A stretch of DNA of 64,000 nucleotides from Alloascoidea hylecoeti (GCA_001600815.1 BCKZ01000003.1:748581-812580); one strand, 5' to 3'; shown: positions 951 to 46,142, numbered from the stretch's first letter. A program made the numbers and translations. Notes: generated by a model not told the origin, from the letters alone.

Positions 951-1494
951 ATTTTTCTTGTTTTTGTCTTTTCATTCATTAATGATCAATCATATATTTA
1001 TTTTGTTTTTTAATGTTGTAGTTCACATTGACTCTATATCTTTCCTTTTCTTTTTCCTTTTTCTTTTTCTAATTTCACTTTTTGTTAATATTACCAATGA
1101 TATTTAATTTGTTGGTTAATGTTAACCTATATAATTACTTATACATGGCACTATTTGATTATAATTACGTCCTAATATTCATCTTTGCATTTCACTTATT
1201 ATTTCAATATCTTTTTTTTTTTTTTTTTATCCAACTAAGTTTCATTCACTTATCTATATTTGTGGAACTTTCCATTCGGATTGCTTTTTTTTTATTTTTA
1301 TTTCTTGTCTTTCATCTTTTATTAATCTTATAATTACTTATCTAATTTGATTTTGTTGATTGTTTTTTCATCATTTTTTATCTTTTCCTGTTAATCATTT
1401 TATCTCTCTCTACCAAAAAATTAAACAGAAGACTAAAAAATTGTTTATAGTTTTTTTTGCCCACACCCTCTCATCATACATGTTTTTTTCACAC

Positions 1495-1495
<1 letters not shown>

Positions 1496-1542
<47 letters not shown>
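1496..1542 (+). repeat. (TAT)n microsatellite
   Basis: About 15 perfect TAT units. Confidence 0.95.
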
Positions 1543-1543
<1 letters not shown>

Positions 1544-4500
1544 AAAAAAAAATTTATTTGAAATTTAATCAAGTGGTATTTGTTAACCAGTCATAAGTAC
1601 TAAGATCTATATATTTTGTTCTTGCTATTGTTGTTATTATTAGTTTTTACAATTTGGCTGATTTTGTAATTTGCGCAAGTAATCATCATGAGTTCTTTAT
1701 TTTTTTAAAATTTGCTATCCTCATATCTCTTTGTTATTGTTTGCTTTATATTGTTATAAAAAAGAAAATAACAACAATAATAATAATATCCTTAAACTAA
1801 AAAAGAAAAAACTATGTTATAAAAAGATGCTTTTAAATTTTGCAATTTGTTGTTTTAAAAATTAATTTGATTTTTAATTTGTATTTCGAAACTTTCAAAA
1901 TTATTCATATCCTATTGTTATGTTTTTATAATTACACTATTTAATACTTGTTTTTTTCAAGTTTTGTTCTAATAGCTAGCAATAGTTTATAATTAATCTT
2001 AGAACCGTTCGGTTTAATGAAGTTACTTTTGATTTTTTTCCACAGCGGGTAAATGCTCTACGGCAAATGGCAACTTTACACAAATCATTTTATTATTAAT
2101 TTTTCTTTTAAAGCTCGAATAATGGAACTCGTTGGTTATCTTTGTAACAAAAATACATATATCATAAATTTTTTAGAAGTATGCTTTAATCACTATTATT
2201 AAGTATTAAAATGGCAGTGTATTCCCTTTCAGCGGAGCACAAGAACTCTAAAGACTATGTAAAAGTTAAGTTTTCACGATGCACGTGGATATTGCATATA
2301 ACCCATTATAGCTTCATACAGGAATTCATCTTCAAAATCAAAATAAAAGTTTCAACTATGCCAATTTGTTGATTATAACCAAAGTCATCAATCTATTTTT
2401 ATGCCATATATAAAGTTTATATTTTTGTCATTGGCTCTTTCATGGTCATAGATTATCATGGTTCATGAAACTAATAATAATATTTCAAATTTAATGTTTG
2501 AATTTCAAAGTTTTGGACATGTAATTTTTAATATACGAATGGATACACATAAACTTAACTGAATATTAATATAATTATTAGAGAATAAAATTAATTCTAG
2601 AATTCTTTAAATACTGATAGCCGCAGAGATCAAGTTCAATACAAAATAATTGAATTTAAAACTTAAATTTAAATAGAATCAATGACGATCCGCAATTCCA
2701 ATTATCATCATCAATTATAAGTTAATGTTAGCGCTCAACCGTAAATACATATATTTGAATGATATGACTAGATGTTAGACGGTCATATAAAGTCTGGCCA
2801 TGGTCAATTGTAAAAAAAAGTCATCAGTATAACACTAGAATGCAGATTGGAAAATGTAAATCAAAAGGAATCTAGAAGGTTAAGCCAAAAGATAATTCAA
2901 ATTATATACCATTCTTCTTTTTATTATATATATAAAACATAGGTATACGAGCTACCATCTTGCTATTAATTGTAATTGTTTCATTATCCCATAAGTCTGG
3001 ACATAGCCCCGCTGGTGTTCATTCTGCTACAACATTTTATTTGTTTTGGGCAAGCGTAATTAAGAGAAGTGTAACTGCATTCGATTGCAGGCAGCTACTA
3101 ACGCAGGTACCAACATGCTTATAATTACAATATACTGTCAAAAAACAACTGAAAATCTGAATCAGGGGCAGCCTGTCATTCAAAAGTCTCAAACATGTCA
3201 ATGCAAGGTTTCAGATTCCCAATAACATTTAATTAGCACAATTCTTTGTTGTCTCTTTTAAGAGTAACCAGAGTACCAAGCTTTTGTAATGAGACCAAAA
3301 TACAGAATTGATGCTTTTCTAGGGTTCACTTTTTTGCAGAGCTTACCGTACTAACTTTCCAACATCATCGACAGTAATCATATATAAACTACTTGTATTT
3401 CAACTTCGAGTTATAATGCTCGAGATTTGAAAACTGATTAGTATACTGAGTTTAAACCGAATTAAGATGGCCCATATTTGTGAAACAACTCGACATACGT
3501 TGATCATCGTCTAATAAAGGCCATGTTCAATCAGAATTAAGATGTAGCAATATCTAAGTTAGTTATATTGATTTTGTTGATAAGGGTATTATAATTGGTA
3601 TATTTGTATTATATAGCCTATATGGTGTATTCGGATGATGTAACTGAAACTCAAGTTGAGAATGATAATTAGATAACTATTTAATTTGATAGCTAGAAGT
3701 GGAAGCATATTCTTCAAAAGGTTTTGGACATATGATATATTGGCCTAGCCTGATTAGTATTTATAATTTTACATTTATCATTAATATTCATTATATATGC
3801 AATATATATTAATAGATATCGAGCATGTATATTAGCAGTGTAGCACTCAAAATCTAGATTATATTGTGAAGTGTTTCGAATTAGACTTCAATTTTAGATA
3901 TTCTGATATATACATAGAATGGCGGACTTTCGAAGAAAATAATCTAGATCCTTAACATGGGAATTGGTCACTTTATGGTCTATACTAAGATACTTGTATA
4001 TTAAAATTACAATTGGACTTTACCCGTGTGTTTAAGGAAGTAAATAATAGTCAGTAATTGACATATTAATGATGTAAATTAATTGTTGACACATCACTCA
4101 TTAAAATATTAATATGCTTAAAATATATGCATTTAAATCGGTATATTGTAATTTTTATTATTGATCATGAGATCAATCAATTGCAAGGGTTTATATAATT
4201 ATTATACTTAGTTAATTTGAACGGAAATTTATAATTACATTGTTGTATAAGTTCAACTTTTATAAATGAAACGCTTGCCTTATTAATATATAATTATGGT
4301 CATCTGCCTCGATGGTTACTAATTTCAATTTCACTTGCAGTTTGAAATATTAAGTGTCATAATTATAATCTTAAGTGCATATATGCATGAGAGATTATTG
4401 CCTTTTTTAGTCACAACAGATCTAGATGTTAAATATGATTTTAGAAAATTTAAATTGAATATATTGCAATTATACAATTGAGCATGTTGCTAATATAATC

Positions 4501-18407: not shown

Positions 18408-19409
18408 TTAAAACTCCACAAATCTATTTGGAAAAAATTCGTCAATTAACGTCATATAATAGGGCGTTAAGGACTCCATATCATAAATTTCATCTCCTTT
18501 AGAATACAAATCGTAAGGATTGAAAGCTTGCACGGCTATTAACATTTCTTCATCATGCTTATTCATTAAGTGTCGGTATGCCCCTTCTCGGTGCCATGGG
18601 TAAAAAGAGTGGTATCTAATCATAGCCAAAGCTTCAGCGGGCAAAGTAGACTGTGATTTTGCAATATGATACATATACTCATCATGACCCCATGACAGCA
18701 TCACATTATCTAGACCACAATGAGGTGAATATATACCATATTCAGTTGAGTATATGGGATGGTAGAAATCTGGATTCTTGTCAAATGTATCTTCATAAAA
18801 AATAATTTTGTCACTGAATTTGCAACCAACTGCAAATGTATCCCCAACAACATCCCACTGACCTTGAGCATTAAAGAAATAAAGTAGTTTCCCCAAATCA
18901 TGGATCAGACCAACTAAAATCATCCATCTAGGCTTTCCATCTCTTCTTATTGCTTCCGCTGTTTGTAAAGCATGCTCGATTTGGGAAAGTTCTGTATCAG
19001 GATCCGATTGATCGATCAAATTTGATAATTTAATCAAAGCATCCCAGATTCTCAGTTTTGCTCTGACTTTTGTTTTGAAGTTAACCCTAGCCTGAATATT
19101 ATAGGCAACGGTTTGATTTTGATGTTGTATACGATAAAACTTTTTGACTCTATCGCACGCTTCTTCGTATTGTCTAAATGCTGATTTATCGATGCCTGAA
19201 TAAATATCTGTAGCTTCATTCCACTCGTGTACTGTTTTGTTACGTCCAGAAGTATTTGTGGGTATAGTCGAGGTGGTAGTACTCGCTATGGCAGAAAACT
19301 GTTCTGCTGGCCCCATTTTTGCCCTAAGATAGTGAACATGTTCGACACCCTCATCTATGTTGTCCAGCAGATGGCCTTCGTCTGTCCGAATCAGCTTGGG
19401 ATCACTCAT
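18408..19409 (-). CDS. MIOX: myo-inositol oxygenase
   Basis: Motifs FRQYEEA, DQSDPDT..SQIEHALQTAEAIR, GLIHDLGK, QWDVVGDTF, SWGHDEYMY, IRYHSFYPWH, DLYSK. Confidence 0.95.
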   Translation of the reverse strand: MSDPKLIRTDEGHLLDNIDEGVEHVHYLRAKMGPAEQFSAIASTTTSTIPTNTSGRNKTVHEWNEATDIYSGIDKSAFRQYEEACDRVKKFYRIQHQNQTVAYNIQARVNFKTKVRAKLRIWDALIKLSNLIDQSDPDTELSQIEHALQTAEAIRRDGKPRWMILVGLIHDLGKLLYFFNAQGQWDVVGDTFAVGCKFSDKIIFYEDTFDKNPDFYHPIYSTEYGIYSPHCGLDNVMLSWGHDEYMYHIAKSQSTLPAEALAMIRYHSFYPWHREGAYRHLMNKHDEEMLIAVQAFNPYDLYSKGDEIYDMESLTPYYMTLIDEFFPNRFVEF

Positions 19410-19524
19410 AATCGCTTAGGTATTTTTTTTATGTACTTGGATCTAATTTGAGAAAAAAGATAATAGGTCACGTGTTTCACAGCAACACGATTAAAATCTA
19501 CCTGATTATATAAGTTTTTATACA

Positions 19525-21600
19525 CTATTTAGCATAATTATCTATAGGTGGGTAATTAACAACCTCAGGTTCACTGCTGCTTGCTTCATCTAGAACGGGT
19601 GGTCGCCTAAACCCTTCAAATTTCTCTCCGTGAGCCTTACTTATGGCCCATAGGACACAATATCTAAGAGCTAGAATAATAAAACCAGCAAGGATTCCTC
19701 CAAAAGGTGCAATGACAAATGCTCCAAAAGCACTCCAATCATCAACGTAGAGACCATTCCAAAGTAGTAGTAACCGTCCTCCATCTCTAGCATTACCTAG
19801 ATATATAGTTCCAAAAATGAAAACCCCTAATAGACCTCCTAAGCCACCACCAACAACTTCCCAGCCCGTTAAGAACCAAAATTTATCCGAAAGGCCTAAG
19901 AACAAAATAGGTATAACTGAAGAAGAAACCAAATCTGCAATCAAGTAAATTTGTAAAATATCTGCTCCTCTCAAGGCAACAACTATAACTGGAACCATAA
20001 CGATAAGAACAACAACTCTAATATAAATTATGGGAAGTTTGTTTCTGCATAAATCGTTAGACAATGTTGAAACCATTGCGGATTGTAAGGAATCAAATGT
20101 TGCAGTTGATAAAACTACACAAAACACCAAAACAAATCCAACTACCCAACCAGGCATAGTTTTTAAAATGATGAAAAATGAGTTAGCAGCATCATCTGAA
20201 CGTGCCTCCAAATAACCACCCCAAACTGCTAAAAGACCAGTGAATCCCGTGAGAAATAAAAAGACAAAAATAACAACCGATGCAATTGAAGTACCGATTA
20301 ACAAATCCTTATCTGTTCTTGATGCAAAGGTTCTCAACCAAAATCCAGACAAAAAACAGTCATTAGTAGCAATAGCAACCAATAAAATATAAATCAACTG
20401 GCCACCTAATTTGTTGGATTTTAAGTACCCAGAATTTTCGATTAGGTCATGATCAACATCAATCTTGGTACCCATCGCACATGAACAAATGATTAATAAT
20501 AATAAAACCATAACTCCTTGTATATTATCAGTGATAAAACTAACTTTAAAGCCACCAATACATGTATAGATACTAGTAACAATACACTCAATAACAAGTA
20601 CTGGCGTTGCTGAAACTCCAGTCAAGCTTTGAATACATGATTGCATGGCAGTTAATTCGCCAACCATATATAAATACATGGTTAAAATGGTAAAAGCTGA
20701 TAAATATAATCCAGTGACGACACCAAATCTTTGGAATACCCATTCTGTTAATACAAATCCATCAGGACATTTTTTCCTTATGAGTGGTCCCAAAAATGCA
20801 AAAATCATGATAGGTAAGGCAGAGGTTATATTATAAACCAATAAGCCTTCCAATCCCGCAATTCCTGCGATTTCAGGATATGTTGTTAAAATTCCAACTC
20901 CCATTGCTATAAGTATTGGTTAGTTCATGTTCACAACTTACAAATAGTTTTATAATTGAAATAAGACAAGATAGCAGCTTGGTTTCCTCACGCAAGTATT
21001 AACTTGATCGAGTTAAATACGGTATGATCTCAGCAGATAACTTTGTTAGGTTAAAAGCACCCGTACCAGCTACTGAAATAGTAGGTAATATATAGAACCA
21101 GAGATTGCTGCCTAGTTAGGTGATTCTACTCTCTTATACATTTATGAAGGAAACGAGTTTGCATATCCGACCTATTTTTCGTTAATAAACAAATTACAAA
21201 AACCAAGTAAACGCACCCGAAGCAATGAAATTCAAAGATAATGGAATAGCTATTGGTGTTAGCTTGATCCTATTGAAACAAAAACAAAGTCCTTATTTAT
21301 TCATTGTTCATACCCTTTTGCGTCTTATTTGAGGATAAGAATGTATCATTTGATTGTTTCCATATTGCGATACCGACACACACAACACTAAAACAGATTT
21401 ATTTATTAGTCATGTTCATCATCATTCTTATTGATTAAGAATCCACATCGAGGAGGGAGTATGCTCCTTGTGTAGGTTTAGAACCAAAGATTAGTTCCTT
21501 GTTCGATTGGCACAAGCCACCATAGGTTCTGTACTTACAGTATGATTGAGTAAGTGGTATAAATTATAGCATTAGATGCTGGATTTGATAATTCACCCAT
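19525..21600 (-). CDS. DUR31: Dur31-family sodium:solute symporter (thiamine transporter); exons 21600-21539, 21387-21314, 21249-21217, 20906-19525 (516 aa)
   Basis: Spliced N-terminus MGELSNPASNAIIYTTY..FLSSNKTQKAIPLSLNFIASAMGVGILTTYPEIA. Many TM segments. Motifs GGFKVSFITDNIQG and FLSGFWLRTFAS. All three introns keep the frame, and intron 3 carries a TPP aptamer. Confidence 0.9.
20975..21072 (-). ncRNA. TPP (thiamine pyrophosphate) riboswitch aptamer in DUR31 intron 3
   Basis: Minus strand reads tagctggTACGGgtgc..gcTGAGAtcataCCGTAtttaaCTCgatCAAGTtaatACTTGcgtGAGgaaaccaagctg. It shows P1, P2 (TACGG/CCGTA), the invariant CUGAGA, P4 (CTC/GAG), P5 (CAAGT/ACTTG, UAAU loop) and the GCG junction. 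Confidence 0.95.
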
Positions 21601-40826: not shown

Positions 40827-42000
40827 AGTGTAATAGAAATTTCATTTGGGAGTCAAATCTTTTTATTGGTATTACTAAAACTATATAATTAAAATTTTAT
40901 GTTTTTTATGTTTGTTATTTATTTGATTACTATGTTTTTATTACTTTTTATTACTTTTTTGAATTTTTATATAATTAATGGGTTTATATACTTAGACATG
41001 GAAATAAACATTTAAACATCATTAAAAAGTTATTATTTAACAAGAAATCTTTAGATATTTTTGTATTTGTAATTGGTAACGTTTGTTATAATTTTCTGAT
41101 TGGTATGGTCCCTTCTTGTGTTGATGTTTCACATACACCTTTCAATAAACTTCTAAGAATTCGAAAAAATTTTAAAAATAAATAAATAACCTTATTATAT
41201 ATATTGAAGGAAAAGGAACTTTAATTATTTTTTCAATGTTTTGAAATAGGTTCTCTGGACCAAGCAAGGAATTAACCTACCATCAAACCAAATTTAAATA
41301 TGATGACTTTATGGCTATGATATACGGTAAGTAAACAGTTAAGTCGTTAAGTATGGGTGCAAAAATACAAAATACAAAATGATTTTTATTATGTTTAACA
41401 AAAAATCTCGAGCTTCTGTAATGAACCAATTTTGTATTTTTTTTCTTCAATACTTAAATAATATACACAAATGTAAGTATAAATTTTAAATAAACAAGAG
41501 AATTAAGCTTAGATTCAACAGTATCCTTATTATCCTTTTTCAATTTTATTTGGAATTTTAAAAATTGACCATTCATGGTTTGTGAGCACTTAAGAAATAT
41601 ACTCTAATACCGAATGAATATAGACTGAAGACGTTTGGTCCATTTATACTTAATATTGTCAGATATCTTTTTTAAATCCATATCTATGTTGCTATTTATT
41701 GAATATTATTACTATGTAGATAATATAAGCCTTATAGTAGAGCCAGCTAGCCTAGAGTCTAGAGACATGTGCATAGTAGTGGTGAAATGTCAACCTTAAG
41801 GGAAAGAAAACTTATAATCAATCGGTATGCTGTAATAATATCGGAGTAGATATACCCATTGTAAATTTTACAATTAATTGGTATCTTATTGTATGTATAA
41901 ATATTATTCAACTATGAATTTCTACTCATCTTCTTATAAGAACACAAAACCAAAACTTAAAGCACCATATTAATTAATATTCAAGTTATAATTATCACTA

Positions 42001-43455
42001 ATGCCTGAGAAAGAAACGAAAATAAATAAAAAATTATCCCAAATCAGATCTGATCTTTATGATTTATTTTATTCTGATGATAATGATAATAAAGGTGTTG
42101 TTTGGGAACTTTATTACAAAACGAAATTAGTTATTCAAGACATAAATAGTGTACAAACGCAACCCAAAAATATATCCAATAACAAAAGTAATACAAAATC
42201 AAAATTAAAATTAGATTTGGGTCAAGAAATACTAACAATAAATAATAAGGATATGTTAGTACTTGATGAGATTCTACAACTATTATCAATAATTCTTATG
42301 TCTATTGGAGAGGATAATCATCCAACCGCTCAATACTCTAAATTATCAACAATACTAAGGCTGTTTTATCAAATGAAAAATAAGAGACTTCATGACACTG
42401 AAACAATTATAAAATTAAAACTAAGTCTAACCAAAATTAAAATTATAATTGATAATTATACTAAGGACAAAAAAAATGATGTTATATTCCCTCTGATTGT
42501 AAACAAATATTTAATTTGTGCAGAAAGTTTAATTTCACTCGAAAGCTCAATTAACAATGAGATATTAAATATTGATAATACTTTATTACCATTCCTAGAC
42601 TCTTTATTGAGCTTGAAGCAGAGAATAATCAATCTTCCTTCAATTTCCTTGTATGTGGCTTCACAGAAAACGAATCAAGATTTAAACTTATTACAAACAC
42701 CTGAAGAAGAAGCAAGATTAATGGCATTTGAAAATGAATCTAGATCACTAGAAACAGAATTAAGGAATTTAAATAAAGAAATACTAGCATCTACATCTAA
42801 TGTGCACCAAGGTAAAAAAATCATTTTCTCCCTTTATGAAGAATGCAAAACTCTTTTCCAAGATTTTTGTGCAAGCAGTTATAATTATAAAGAATTAATG
42901 GATGATAAATTAAAACCAATATATGAACAATTGATTGAAATGAAATATTTTTTGGATAAAAATATTAGTATAATAACTGTTGGAGAGCATAAATGGACGA
43001 TTGAGAATATGGAAAAAAATATGGTTTCAAACCAAATGAAATTAGAAAAAATTCATAATTTAAGAAGTAATGGCGTCTTTTCTGGCGAAATAGGAAAACC
43101 TTTACAAGGTCAACCTACTATTATATATCTCATTGGAAGATGTTTTTCCTTGACTCGAAACTTCTTTGAATTAAATGACACGATTTCTGAGTCTTTGGTG
43201 CCTGTATATACTGAACTAATGAGAGCTAGAAATTTTCTAGCGGATTTAAAAGATCGCGGTGACGTCAAAACTTCAGAAATGTTAACTATGTGTAATTCTG
43301 TAGCTATGAAAGCTACAAATAAACGAGTCAATGGGGAATTCTTGGCTGACGATGGATCAGCTCCGATAGGTCAGGACATTCTTTCTACCACCTTGAATGA
43401 ATGTGTTAGTATTTATTACGAAATAACATGGAAGTGTTCAATTGATATTGAGTAA
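42001..43455 (+). CDS. CUB1: Divergent Cub1/YPL260W (DUF2408)-like protein, tandem copy 1
   Basis: Motifs VLDEILQLLS..IG...P..YS.LSTI.RL, LKPIYEQL, GQ..I.YL..RC, ISESLVPVY, RVNG.F..DG..P.GQ..L...LNEC. Confidence 0.7.
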   Translation: MPEKETKINKKLSQIRSDLYDLFYSDDNDNKGVVWELYYKTKLVIQDINSVQTQPKNISNNKSNTKSKLKLDLGQEILTINNKDMLVLDEILQLLSIILMSIGEDNHPTAQYSKLSTILRLFYQMKNKRLHDTETIIKLKLSLTKIKIIIDNYTKDKKNDVIFPLIVNKYLICAESLISLESSINNEILNIDNTLLPFLDSLLSLKQRIINLPSISLYVASQKTNQDLNLLQTPEEEARLMAFENESRSLETELRNLNKEILASTSNVHQGKKIIFSLYEECKTLFQDFCASSYNYKELMDDKLKPIYEQLIEMKYFLDKNISIITVGEHKWTIENMEKNMVSNQMKLEKIHNLRSNGVFSGEIGKPLQGQPTIIYLIGRCFSLTRNFFELNDTISESLVPVYTELMRARNFLADLKDRGDVKTSEMLTMCNSVAMKATNKRVNGEFLADDGSAPIGQDILSTTLNECVSIYYEITWKCSIDIE

Positions 43456-44693
43456 AGTGATAAAAGTGGTTGCAAATAAGCAATGATACTAGAGTATTGA
43501 TGTGTGGGAAACACAACCCCAGGAGAAATCTACCAAAACTTACGAATTACATAGATTATATAATTTGATAGGAATATCTTATATTTAGCCAGTTTAGTAC
43601 ATTTTTAAGAAAGGAATCAGACTTTTGAGTATTTGTTCTTCACAAGTGGATCCATTAATCTTAACAAGTTATCGTTTGAACTGAAAAAGTGACAAGTCGT
43701 GATAGTAGACTAGTTTCAGACAGTTCTTCTTTTTTGGTTGAGTTACTGATTATTGAGTTTTCGACCATAAAAGCATTATTGTGAGAGTTTGTGCTTTCTT
43801 TTAGATATTTGTTGTCCTTATTGTCTTTTGCGCTAAATCTGCTCACCCTTAGAACATTTCACAAGGAGTCGATTGGCTTTTTGGTATAACTAGGAGAAAC
43901 TGGCACATAGAAACTTTATTATATAAATTTGATTTATATTACTTAAGCTTATAATAAAAAAATCTATTGAAGTTAATTTTCTTTTCGATTGAGAAGTTAT
44001 TCCGAAATCATACCAATAATCAACGGCGCATAGAACTCAAATGAGTTAGCATACTCGGATGCCACAACATTGTTATATTACAACCATGAATTACAAAACT
44101 AATAGCAAATAAATATTATTATGAATAATATCACTAGGTTTTGTTTGATCCTTTTGATAATACTTGTTTAATTTTTTCGGCATTTTTTGTTGTGGTGTCA
44201 GATTGTTTCCATATGCTAACGTGTAAGGTTCGGTAGATCTACTAGATCAAGTTACTAAGTATTAGTCCAAAAACAAAATGATTAAATCATGTGCAATAAA
44301 AAAAAACTCCTTCTTTCTCCTGTGATGAACATCTGTTGTATATTTTCTCTAATAGTTAAAGAATATATGTAACTAATTGCAAATAATGCGAGAATTAAGT
44401 TTAATCTCTATATTCTTTATCATCTTTTTCAACAATTTTATTTGAAAAATTTAAAGATTGTATTGGGATTGTGAGCGCTTAAGAAATATACTCTAATACA
44501 AAAGACTGATGAATAAACTGAAGAGTTTTGGGCTATATACTTAATATCGTGATTTAAATTTTACAATTAATTGGTATCTTATTGTATGTATAAATATTAT
44601 TCAACTATGAATTTCTACTCATCTTCTTATAAGAACACAAAACCAAAACTTAAAGCACCATATTAATTAATATTCAAGTTATAATTATCACTA

Positions 44694-46142
44694 ATGCCTG
44701 AGAAAGAAACGAAAATAAATAAAAAATTATCCCAAATCAGATCTGATCTTTATGATTTATTTTATTCTGATGATAATGATAATAAAGGTGTTGTTTGGGA
44801 ACTTTATTACAAAACGAAATTAGTTATTCAAGACATAAATAGTGTACAAACGCAACCCAAAAATATATCCAATAACAAAAGTAATACAAAATCAAAATTA
44901 AAATCAGATTTGGGTCAAGAAAGATTAACAATAAATAATAAGGATATGTTAGTACTTGATGAGATTCTACAACTATTATCAATAATTCTTATGTCTATTG
45001 GAGAGGATAATCATCCAACCGCTCAATACTCTAAATTATCAACAATACTAAGGTTGCTTTGTCAAATTAAGAATGAGGAACTTCATGACACTGAAACAAT
45101 TATAAAAATAAAACTAAGTCTGACTAAAATAAAAATTATAATTGATAATTATACTAGGGACAAAAAGAATGATGTTATATTCCCTCTGATTGTAAACAAA
45201 TATTTAATTTGTGCAGAAAGTTTAATTTCACTCGAAAGCTCAATTAACAATGAGATATTAAATATTGATAATACTTTATTACCATTCCTAGACTCTTTAT
45301 TGAGCTTGAAGCAGAGAATAATCAATCTTCCTTCAATTTCCTTGTATGTGGCTTCACAGAAAAAGATTCGAGATTTAAACTTATTACAAACACCTGAAGA
45401 AGAAGCAAGATTAGTGCCATTTGAAAATGAAGCCATATCACTAGAAACAGAATTAAAGAGTTTAATTAAAGAAATATCAACATCTATTGTACACCAAGGT
45501 AATACAATCATATATTCCCTTTATGAAGAATGCAAAATTCTTTTCCAAGATTTTTGTGCAATTAATCATAATTATAAAGAATTAATGGATGATAAATTAA
45601 AACCAATATATGAACAATTGATTGAAATTAAATATTTTTTGGATAAAAATATTAGTATAATAACTCTTGGAGACCGTAAATTGAAAAATCATAGTATGGC
45701 GAAGAATTTGTTTTGGAACCGAAAAAAATTAGATGGAATTCATAATTTAAGAAGTAATGGCGTCTTTTCTGACGAAATAGGCAAACCTCTACGAGGTCAA
45801 TCTCCTATTATATATCTAATTGGACGATGTTATTTTTTGACTAGAAAATTTTCAGAATTATATGACCCGATTTCTGAATCTTTGATGCCTGCATATAATG
45901 AACTGGTGGGAACTAGAAACTTTTTAGCGGGTTTAAAAGAACGCGATGAGGTTAAAACTTCAGAAATGTTAGCTATGTGTAATTCTGTAGTTTCGGAAGC
46001 TACAAATAAACGAATTGGTGGGGAATTTTTGGTTGTTGATGGATCGGCTCCGATAGGTCAGGACATTCTTTCTGCTCTCATGAATGAATGCATTACTATT
46101 TATTACGATATAGAAGGGAAGTATTTAATCAATATTGATTAG
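44694..46142 (+). CDS. CUB1: Divergent Cub1/DUF2408-like protein, tandem copy 2
   Basis: Colinear with copy 1; the first 70 codons are identical and the 3' half has diverged. Confidence 0.7.
   Translation: MPEKETKINKKLSQIRSDLYDLFYSDDNDNKGVVWELYYKTKLVIQDINSVQTQPKNISNNKSNTKSKLKSDLGQERLTINNKDMLVLDEILQLLSIILMSIGEDNHPTAQYSKLSTILRLLCQIKNEELHDTETIIKIKLSLTKIKIIIDNYTRDKKNDVIFPLIVNKYLICAESLISLESSINNEILNIDNTLLPFLDSLLSLKQRIINLPSISLYVASQKKIRDLNLLQTPEEEARLVPFENEAISLETELKSLIKEISTSIVHQGNTIIYSLYEECKILFQDFCAINHNYKELMDDKLKPIYEQLIEIKYFLDKNISIITLGDRKLKNHSMAKNLFWNRKKLDGIHNLRSNGVFSDEIGKPLRGQSPIIYLIGRCYFLTRKFSELYDPISESLMPAYNELVGTRNFLAGLKERDEVKTSEMLAMCNSVVSEATNKRIGGEFLVVDGSAPIGQDILSALMNECITIYYDIEGKYLINID

Follow-up and report, generated by a model that had tools for sequence, protein, structure and literature searches.

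The window analysed here, 64,000 nucleotides (nt) of Alloascoidea hylecoeti DNA (BCKZ01000003.1:748581-812580; 30.3% G+C), contains on its minus strand what is, judging from sequence, almost certainly a real thiamin pyrophosphate (TPP) aptamer, located in the third intron of a putative DUR31 gene for a Dur31/NCU01977-type SSF transporter. By homology, thiamin quite probably represses the splicing of DUR31 in this species. The best joint explanation of the observations is that the aptamer in intron 3 would act as an OFF switch on productive splicing, of the DUR31/NCU01977 subtype and with a compact alpha-alpha' pairing, an explanation that, taken as a whole, we hold to be about evenly poised between right and wrong.

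TPP riboswitches are found in DUR31 introns across Saccharomycotina, with at least 41 genomes carrying one in the S1 table of Donovan et al. 2018 (PMC5997356). According to that paper, Dur31 transports thiamin, thiamin reduces productive DUR31 splicing in C. parapsilosis and O. polymorpha, and deletion of the riboswitch abolishes DUR31 splicing; in the sections of it drawn on here, Saccharomycetaceae are given as lacking riboswitches. In the homologous gene NCU01977, an element termed alpha lies less than 60 nt from the productive donor and forms base pairs with alpha' (the 3' shoulder of helix P1), itself less than 60 nt from the acceptor; this pairing promotes splicing without TPP (Li & Breaker 2013, PMC3597705). 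The first-pass annotation of the window, made from the sequence alone, had referred to TPP-controlled splicing of DUR31 in Candida and of NCU01977 in Neurospora as well as the absence of these riboswitches from S. cerevisiae, and the two papers bear out all three points as far as their cited parts extend.

A TPP aptamer in intron 3 of DUR31

Covariance-model searches were run on a 451-nt stretch and on the whole 64-kb window, the latter on both strands with all 4227 Rfam families. The whole of the TPP model RF00059 (positions 1-105 of 105) aligned to 20967-21074 on the minus strand with 49.5 bits (E = 7.7e-09 in the 451-nt search), and in the whole window this was the sole match with E ≤ 0.1 (E = 1.1e-06). 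The aptamer that the first-pass annotation had placed at 20975-21072 lies inside this match, which is significant window-wide though under the curated Rfam cut-off (the gathering score, 54.3 bits); because 49.5 bits is below that score, a default Rfam scan returns 0 matches. The elements of the predicted aptamer are as follows.

20967-21074, minus strand: TPP aptamer (RF00059 alignment, invariant columns, P1 covariation)
21074-21065 / 20983-20973, minus strand: helix P1
21064-21061 / 21022-19, minus strand: helix P2
21012-20987, minus strand: helices P4-P5
21033-28, minus strand: CUGAGA junction (RF00059 alignment)

In the RF00059 alignment, P1, P2, P4 and P5 are fully paired, the conserved junctions (CUGAGA, ACC of P2, and GCG..GGA) are kept, and P3a is deleted, which is the eukaryote form. 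P3 consists of two G-C pairs at its base, three non-standard pairs and then a possible UAAC/GUUA helix; its length varies from 23 to 157 nt among fungal aptamers. Binding of TPP would be expected to protect CUGAGA (21033-28) and GCGUGAGGA.

The same aptamer subtype in related loci

Homologous loci were collected from metagenome contigs, scanned with an alignment that comprised the exon-4 protein and 28 homologues; the 80 loci analysed are the best of 160 confirmed among 226 pattern matches. The P4-P5 core ACUCGAUCAAG..UAAU.CUUGCGUG, scored as the DNA pattern ACTCGATCA.G......C.TGCG.G, occurs upstream of the homologous exon in 67 of these 80 loci. The core was not found in 7 loci despite at least 300 nt of upstream sequence, and in the remaining 6 the upstream sequence is too short to judge. 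In 61 of the 67 positive loci the distance from core to match is 53-107 nt, with a mode of 81-85 nt that corresponds to the Pezizomycotina-type loci. In the window, 84 nt separate the end of the core from the first full codon of exon 4, a distance within this mode, whereas the core-to-exon distance is 142-602 nt in six sampled yeast loci.

Ten yeast-like loci were tested with RF00059. Six of them matched, with 47.9-56.3 bits, and four had no match at E ≤ 0.01. The score of the window (49.5 bits) is thus typical, since six of the ten loci fall in that range; two of the six reached the gathering score and four remained under it (47.9-52.2 bits). An intron at the same position and in the same phase 1 (G|GT after NF[IV]AS) is present in the window and in seven yeast loci, six of which carry the aptamer, while the intron of the seventh (L007), 77 nt long, holds none; in L001, L010 and L011 both the intron and the aptamer are missing.

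Thirty-eight columns, including the whole P4-P5 segment, are invariant among the window and the six yeast DUR31 aptamers. Conversely, the sequence of P1 differs in every one of these seven loci and its complementarity is kept: each locus's own P1 shoulders pair with predicted energies of -9.3 to -13.0 kcal/mol (7 of 7 loci, mean -11.4), compared to a mean of -3.5 kcal/mol (best -8.5) for the 42 combinations of shoulders across loci. From these aligned sequences, P1 is held by covariation. Taken together, the shared core, the 38 invariant columns and the covariation of P1 indicate that the aptamer is genuine and belongs to a DUR31-specific subtype.

Three of the yeast-like loci have transfer RNA (tRNA) genes upstream of the riboswitch intron, L004 at 1456-1543 and L005 at 1492-1578 (both about 500-600 nt upstream) and L006 at 434-627 (1-1.2 kb).

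The host gene and its introns

The gene model and its translation give four exons and a protein of 516 aa, all on the minus strand.

19525-21600, minus strand: Dur31/NCU01977-type SSF transporter gene
21600-21539, 21387-21314, 21249-21217 and 20906-19525 (stop included), minus strand: exons 1-4
20907-21216, minus strand: intron 3, 310 nt, phase 1, splitting Ala57 after ...NFIAS and holding the riboswitch
21211-21216, minus strand: 5' splice site S1, GTGCGT (gene model)
20919-20924, minus strand: branch-site motif ACTAAC, with the branch A at 20920
20907-20908, minus strand: 3' splice site AG (gene model)

Exon 4 matches the Pfam SSF family (PF00474, E = 1.2e-05), and its protein is 54-64% identical to yeast proteins named 'urea transport protein' or Dur3, and one relative is 88% identical. 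We compared the N-terminus to a set of 17 annotated yeast homologues, and it aligns without gaps to most of them (MGELS..NAIIY..FLSSN.TQK..PLSLNFIAS|AMGVGILTTY). The SSF match, the collinear N-terminus, and the shared intron position and aptamer subtype agree with the earlier naming of the host as DUR31. We therefore take it to be a putative Dur31-clade SSF transporter, the shared intron and aptamer standing in for a tree that would separate clade V from Dur3. Callers based on open reading frames (ORFs) give the last exon alone (459 aa), and many database entries are likewise about 460-470 aa long. Compared to related yeast loci, in which the N-terminal coding sequence runs uninterrupted to NF[IV]AS, the DUR31 gene of the window has two extra 5' introns and a 33-nt micro-exon (21217-21249, minus strand). 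As regards the first-pass label of a CUG-Leu yeast, the coding sequence of the gene contains 69 Leu codons (TTA 32, TTG 17, CTT 9, CTA 8, CTC 3 and CTG 0); no tRNA genes were found in the 64-kb window.

Intron 3 had been described in the first pass as unusually long, at 310 nt, with a weak GTGCGT donor. The length (21216-20907) and the donor sequence are both confirmed by the four-exon gene model, the other two introns of the gene being 151 nt (21538-21388, donor GTAAGT) and 64 nt (21313-21250, donor GTATGA). The GTGCGT donor differs from these two, and the donors of the homologous intron in seven related yeast loci are GTATGT, GTACGT, GTGAGT and GTTTGT, such that GTGCGT appears to be weak; a crude intron scan of the window was too noisy to yield a donor consensus for the species.

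Consequences of intron retention

Retention of intron 3 had been predicted to reach a TAA within 8 codons, and the gene model gives the same result: the retained-intron frame reads G-A-F-T-W-F-L and then TAA.

21194-21196, minus strand: in-frame TAA read on retention, the 8th codon after Ser56

Twelve other GT sites occur within the first 160 intron nucleotides, and splicing from any of them leads to a stop at codon 64-74 (12 of 12 sites). Because all 12 end in an early stop, S1 is the sole productive donor, and the full 516-aa protein is obtained solely via S1 (21216). By analogy with experiments on homologues, at low thiamin intron 3 would be removed and the transporter made. At high TPP, the aptamer would fold, splicing from S1 would fall and the intron would be retained, giving a stub of about 63 aa, with the transcript probably subject to nonsense-mediated decay.

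A candidate alpha-alpha' pairing

Duplex predictions give the P1 3' shoulder and its flank, the putative alpha', two alternative kinds of partner: the P1 5' shoulder and segments of the upstream intron. RNAduplex on long segments produced loopy, uninformative duplexes; we used instead a bounded alpha' strand (20987-20958), searched against the upstream intron and scored by duplex energy and dinucleotide shuffles. The alpha' strand and the candidate partners are as follows.

20958-20987, minus strand: alpha' strand, made up of GGA, the 3' shoulder of P1 and the next 15 nt
21148-21178, minus strand: candidate alpha element 'b' (positions 39-69 of the intron), predicted as the best partner of alpha'
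21198-21207, minus strand: candidate competitor 'a', CUUGGUUUUU, spanning intron positions 10-19 and able to pair with GGAAACCAAG in the 3' shoulder of P1
21095-21113, minus strand: candidate competitor 'c', GGCAGC...UGGUU, which resembles the P1 5' shoulder

The predicted duplex of alpha' with element 'b' has an energy of -19.6 kcal/mol and consists of helices of 6, 3, 6 and 7 base pairs (bp), and this pairing is present in the unconstrained minimum free energy (MFE) structure of the pre-mRNA. Competitor 'a' is predicted to form 9-10 bp, including G-U pairs, with the P1 3' shoulder (-10.3 kcal/mol), and its duplex reaches -13.1 kcal/mol once it also takes in the 5' splice site; competitor 'c' pairs with alpha' at -12.4 kcal/mol. 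The alpha' strand ends at 20958 and the acceptor is at 20907, which leaves fewer than 60 nt between them. With the aptamer enforced, the ensemble energy is -74.8 kcal/mol, against -85.1 kcal/mol for the free ensemble, a cost of about 10 kcal/mol, and the pairs of the aptamer have a mean probability of 0.035 without the constraint; in this model, the fold cost and the low ligand-free pair probability are in keeping with a switch driven by ligand.

Without TPP, the strand 20987-20958 would pair with 21178-21148, undoing P1 and P4 and bringing the non-consensus donor near the branch site, which is 48 nt downstream of P1. With TPP, the 10-bp P1 would prevail and this help to splicing would be lost. 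On these predictions, a compact Neurospora-type alpha-alpha' step in the window is a tentative proposal, to which we give somewhat less than an even chance.

Several observations weigh against this step. The element 'b' duplex was matched by 38 of 1000 dinucleotide shuffles, whichever strand was shuffled, which amounts to only p = 0.038, and a slightly longer segment in an earlier run gave p = 0.057. The longest continuous run of the pairing is 7 bp, compared to at least 11 continuous bp for alpha-alpha' of NCU01977 in nearly all species compared by Li & Breaker (PMC3597705), and the RGCGGYRRY consensus was not found in the upstream intron segment of the window. Competing segments at -2..+19 (-13.1 kcal/mol) and +104..+122 (-12.4 kcal/mol) are about as good partners as the true P1 shoulder (-13.0 kcal/mol). 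In the nearest-neighbour model, donor accessibility is unchanged by the enforced aptamer (0.44 vs. 0.45), and in both modelled states the donor pairs with the 3' splice site and the start of exon 4. Among the other yeast loci, L003 alone has a significant alpha partner; the share of shuffles that match the best duplex is 0.96-0.97 in L006, 0.91-0.93 in L009 and 0.17 in L008, and in L004 and L005 the aptamer begins about 25 nt past the donor. Finally, Donovan et al. 2018 consider it unlikely that the C. parapsilosis intron, at 351 nt, uses long-range pairing and, in the sections drawn on here, call the yeast mechanism unknown (PMC5997356).

As a control, the same search was made in 38 distinct non-yeast loci with 100 shuffles each. 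In 34 of the 38, the best duplex involved an element with a GCGG core at about +26..+60, and p ≤ 0.05 was reached in just 12 of the 38. Since no more than 12 of 38 control loci pass this level, the shuffle test is weak and the window is on a par with known cases.

In many Pezizomycotina-type loci (for example L012, L017, L032 and L047), the best alpha' duplex includes the donor itself, with CGG|GUGAGUGC pairing with a pyrimidine tract just past alpha' (ACUCCCCCU); such a donor-inclusive duplex was not met in the parts of Li & Breaker 2013 (PMC3597705) drawn on here.

Alternative explanations

The most serious alternative is a functional TPP riboswitch with the same OFF logic that has no alpha-alpha' bridge, in which ligand binding would act on the splice signals themselves or change which donor is used ('Type III', Mukherjee 2018); we consider it somewhat unlikely. 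For example, UUGGUU (21206-21201) has two complementary partners, the P1 3' shoulder (-10.3 kcal/mol) and the branch region (-7.0 kcal/mol), and could therefore block the branch site once P1 forms: the shoulder would hold UUGGUU without TPP, and formation of P1 would free it to pair with AACCAA (20921-20916) over the branch adenosine. With the aptamer enforced, UUGGUU is predicted to pair with 20916-20921 at a probability of 0.76-0.88, compared to 0.4-0.55 on shifted partners in the free ensemble. However, such a helix, A/U-rich and of 6 bp, is weak, enforcing the aptamer leaves the branch region less paired on average (mean unpaired probability of 0.43 vs. 0.23), and the free P1 5' shoulder can itself pair near the branch site without ligand (-6.4 kcal/mol), which blurs the logic. 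In a variant of the same idea, splicing would move to donors that are not productive, for instance GTAATT at +20. Intron 3 has the size and layout of Type III (internal, 200-400 nt, with further GT sites and a stop), none of the 12 alternative donors is productive, and control of access to the first donor is proposed by Donovan et al. (PMC5997356) in its cited parts; yet no alternative donor comes closer to consensus than GTAATT.

Elements of both mechanisms could be combined. Intron 3 would then be a miniature Neurospora switch that keeps an ancestral 84-nt spacing lost in the other sampled budding-yeast loci, with alpha' contested by three upstream segments and with UUGGUU (+11..+16) able to pair over the branch adenosine once P1 forms. 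This is a speculative model, and we regard it as rather doubtful in its entirety.

We also considered whether the aptamer is a decaying relic, with splicing constitutive or poor and thiamin control gone. Pointing that way, and thus away from a working switch, are the missed gathering score, the three non-standard pairs in the model alignment of P3 (a 3x3 run of U-U/U-C mismatches), and the lack of excess stability of the isolated 121-nt aptamer (z = -0.91, with 32 of 200 shuffles equal), the MFE structure of which recovers P1, P4 and P5 and not P2 or P3. Loss of the DUR31 riboswitch is common in yeasts, with C. albicans and Lodderomyces given as lacking it in the cited parts of PMC5997356, and four of the ten yeast-like loci have no RF00059 match. 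Nevertheless, the window retains all 38 columns that are invariant among the six other yeast DUR31 aptamers, P1, P2, P4 and P5 are fully paired, and four of the six comparison aptamers are also under the gathering score. P3, moreover, is variable and dispensable in fungal TPP aptamers, and a truncated P3 worked in N. crassa (PMC3597705, in the part cited). We thus consider decay quite improbable. A chance likeness to the TPP model in AT-rich intron sequence, which the 30% G+C of the window and the missed gathering score might suggest, has a practically negligible probability and is refuted by the six yeast-locus matches, the 38 invariant columns, the core in 67 of 80 loci, the whole-window E of 1.1e-06, and an intron and exon spacing that is where homologues carry the aptamer.

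Two further sequence features near the splice sites were considered. CAUUGCU near the 3' end of exon 3 (21221-21227) has full complementarity to AGCAAUG across the 3' splice site (20902-20908), with a predicted pairing probability of about 0.99 in both modelled states. This complementarity was rejected as a coincidence, because the two segments consist of Ile-Ala and Ala-Met codons and relatives do not conserve it (GCC ATG in L001). The second is a consensus-like donor sequence.

20936-20941, minus strand: GTAAGT, downstream of the aptamer and upstream of the branch site, 35 nt from the acceptor

It has no counterpart in relatives, and by our own estimate about 0.1 such sites are expected by chance in the intron. 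It lies too near the acceptor to start a normal intron, and may be due to chance or serve as a U1 decoy.

Neighbouring genes

A gene for myo-inositol oxygenase (Pfam MIOX, E = 2.5e-121) is located at 18411-19415 on the minus strand, about 110 nt downstream of the DUR31 stop and on the same strand. Elsewhere in the window are two tandem DUF2408 (PF10303) genes on the plus strand, at 41992-43452 (487 aa) and 44685-46139 (485 aa). The same candidate 123-nt intron (GTATGT ... TCACTAATG) precedes each of them (41891-42013 and 44584-44706), and the pair looks like a recent tandem duplication.

Significance

The intronic TPP riboswitch class of DUR31/NCU01977 is already well described in the cited parts of PMC5997356 and PMC3597705, and the element in the window may itself already be listed in the S1 table of Donovan et al. 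if the species is among its genomes. Going by sequence, what would extend beyond the cited literature is the Pezizomycotina-type spacing between aptamer and exon and the compact alpha-alpha' candidate, neither of which is established. An AT-rich, comparatively intron-rich budding yeast appears to keep an ancient riboswitch at its putative Dur31 thiamin importer, and recognizing it enables a correct annotation of the gene, with four exons including the 33-nt micro-exon overlooked by ORF-based callers. The Rfam gathering threshold misses this subtype, with the window and four of six related yeast loci under the cut-off, and genome scans in yeasts therefore need a lower cut-off or the DUR31-specific P4-P5 core. 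The short intron with ancestral spacing is a convenient construct for testing Neurospora-type long-range pairing in budding yeasts, and the miniature-switch model, if true, would be a concrete, mutable model of splicing control by budding-yeast DUR31 riboswitches.

Comparison with known systems

In N. crassa NMT1 and plant THIC (PMC3597705), as is probable by homology for the window, a TPP aptamer controls splicing; the complementarity of the aptamer to a proximal donor that characterizes those two genes was not seen in the window. Type III introns are internal, 200-400 nt long and have two donors (Mukherjee et al. 2018, PMC5882874, as far as cited here), whereas the intron in the window has no convincing second donor, and its stop overlaps GTAATT at +20 and is not located between two donors.

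With the yeast DUR31 riboswitch (PMC5997356), the window shares the orthologous gene for an SSF-type thiamin transporter, a premature stop if the intron is unspliced, and the lack of P3a. One of the sampled loci, L008, agrees with C. parapsilosis (PMC5997356) in its intron length of 351 nt and its GTATGT donor, and it shares the invariant aptamer columns. Unlike DUR31 of C. parapsilosis and O. polymorpha, the window has two extra upstream introns, the 33-nt micro-exon, and GTGCGT in place of GTATGT; compared to the six sampled yeast loci, its aptamer is near the 3' end of the intron, with the core 84 nt from the exon vs. 142-602 nt.

The differences from NCU01977 (PMC3597705) are an intron of 310 nt in place of about 600 nt, the absence of RGCGGYRRY, and an interrupted pairing at p = 0.038. 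The likenesses to NCU01977 include the orthologous gene, an aptamer that lies close to the 3' splice site, with equal spacing, a donor of the GUGNGU type (GTGAGT in most Pezizomycotina-type loci), the OFF logic proposed for the window, and a long P1, the 3' shoulder of which is predicted to be able to pair with a segment less than about 70 nt from the productive donor.

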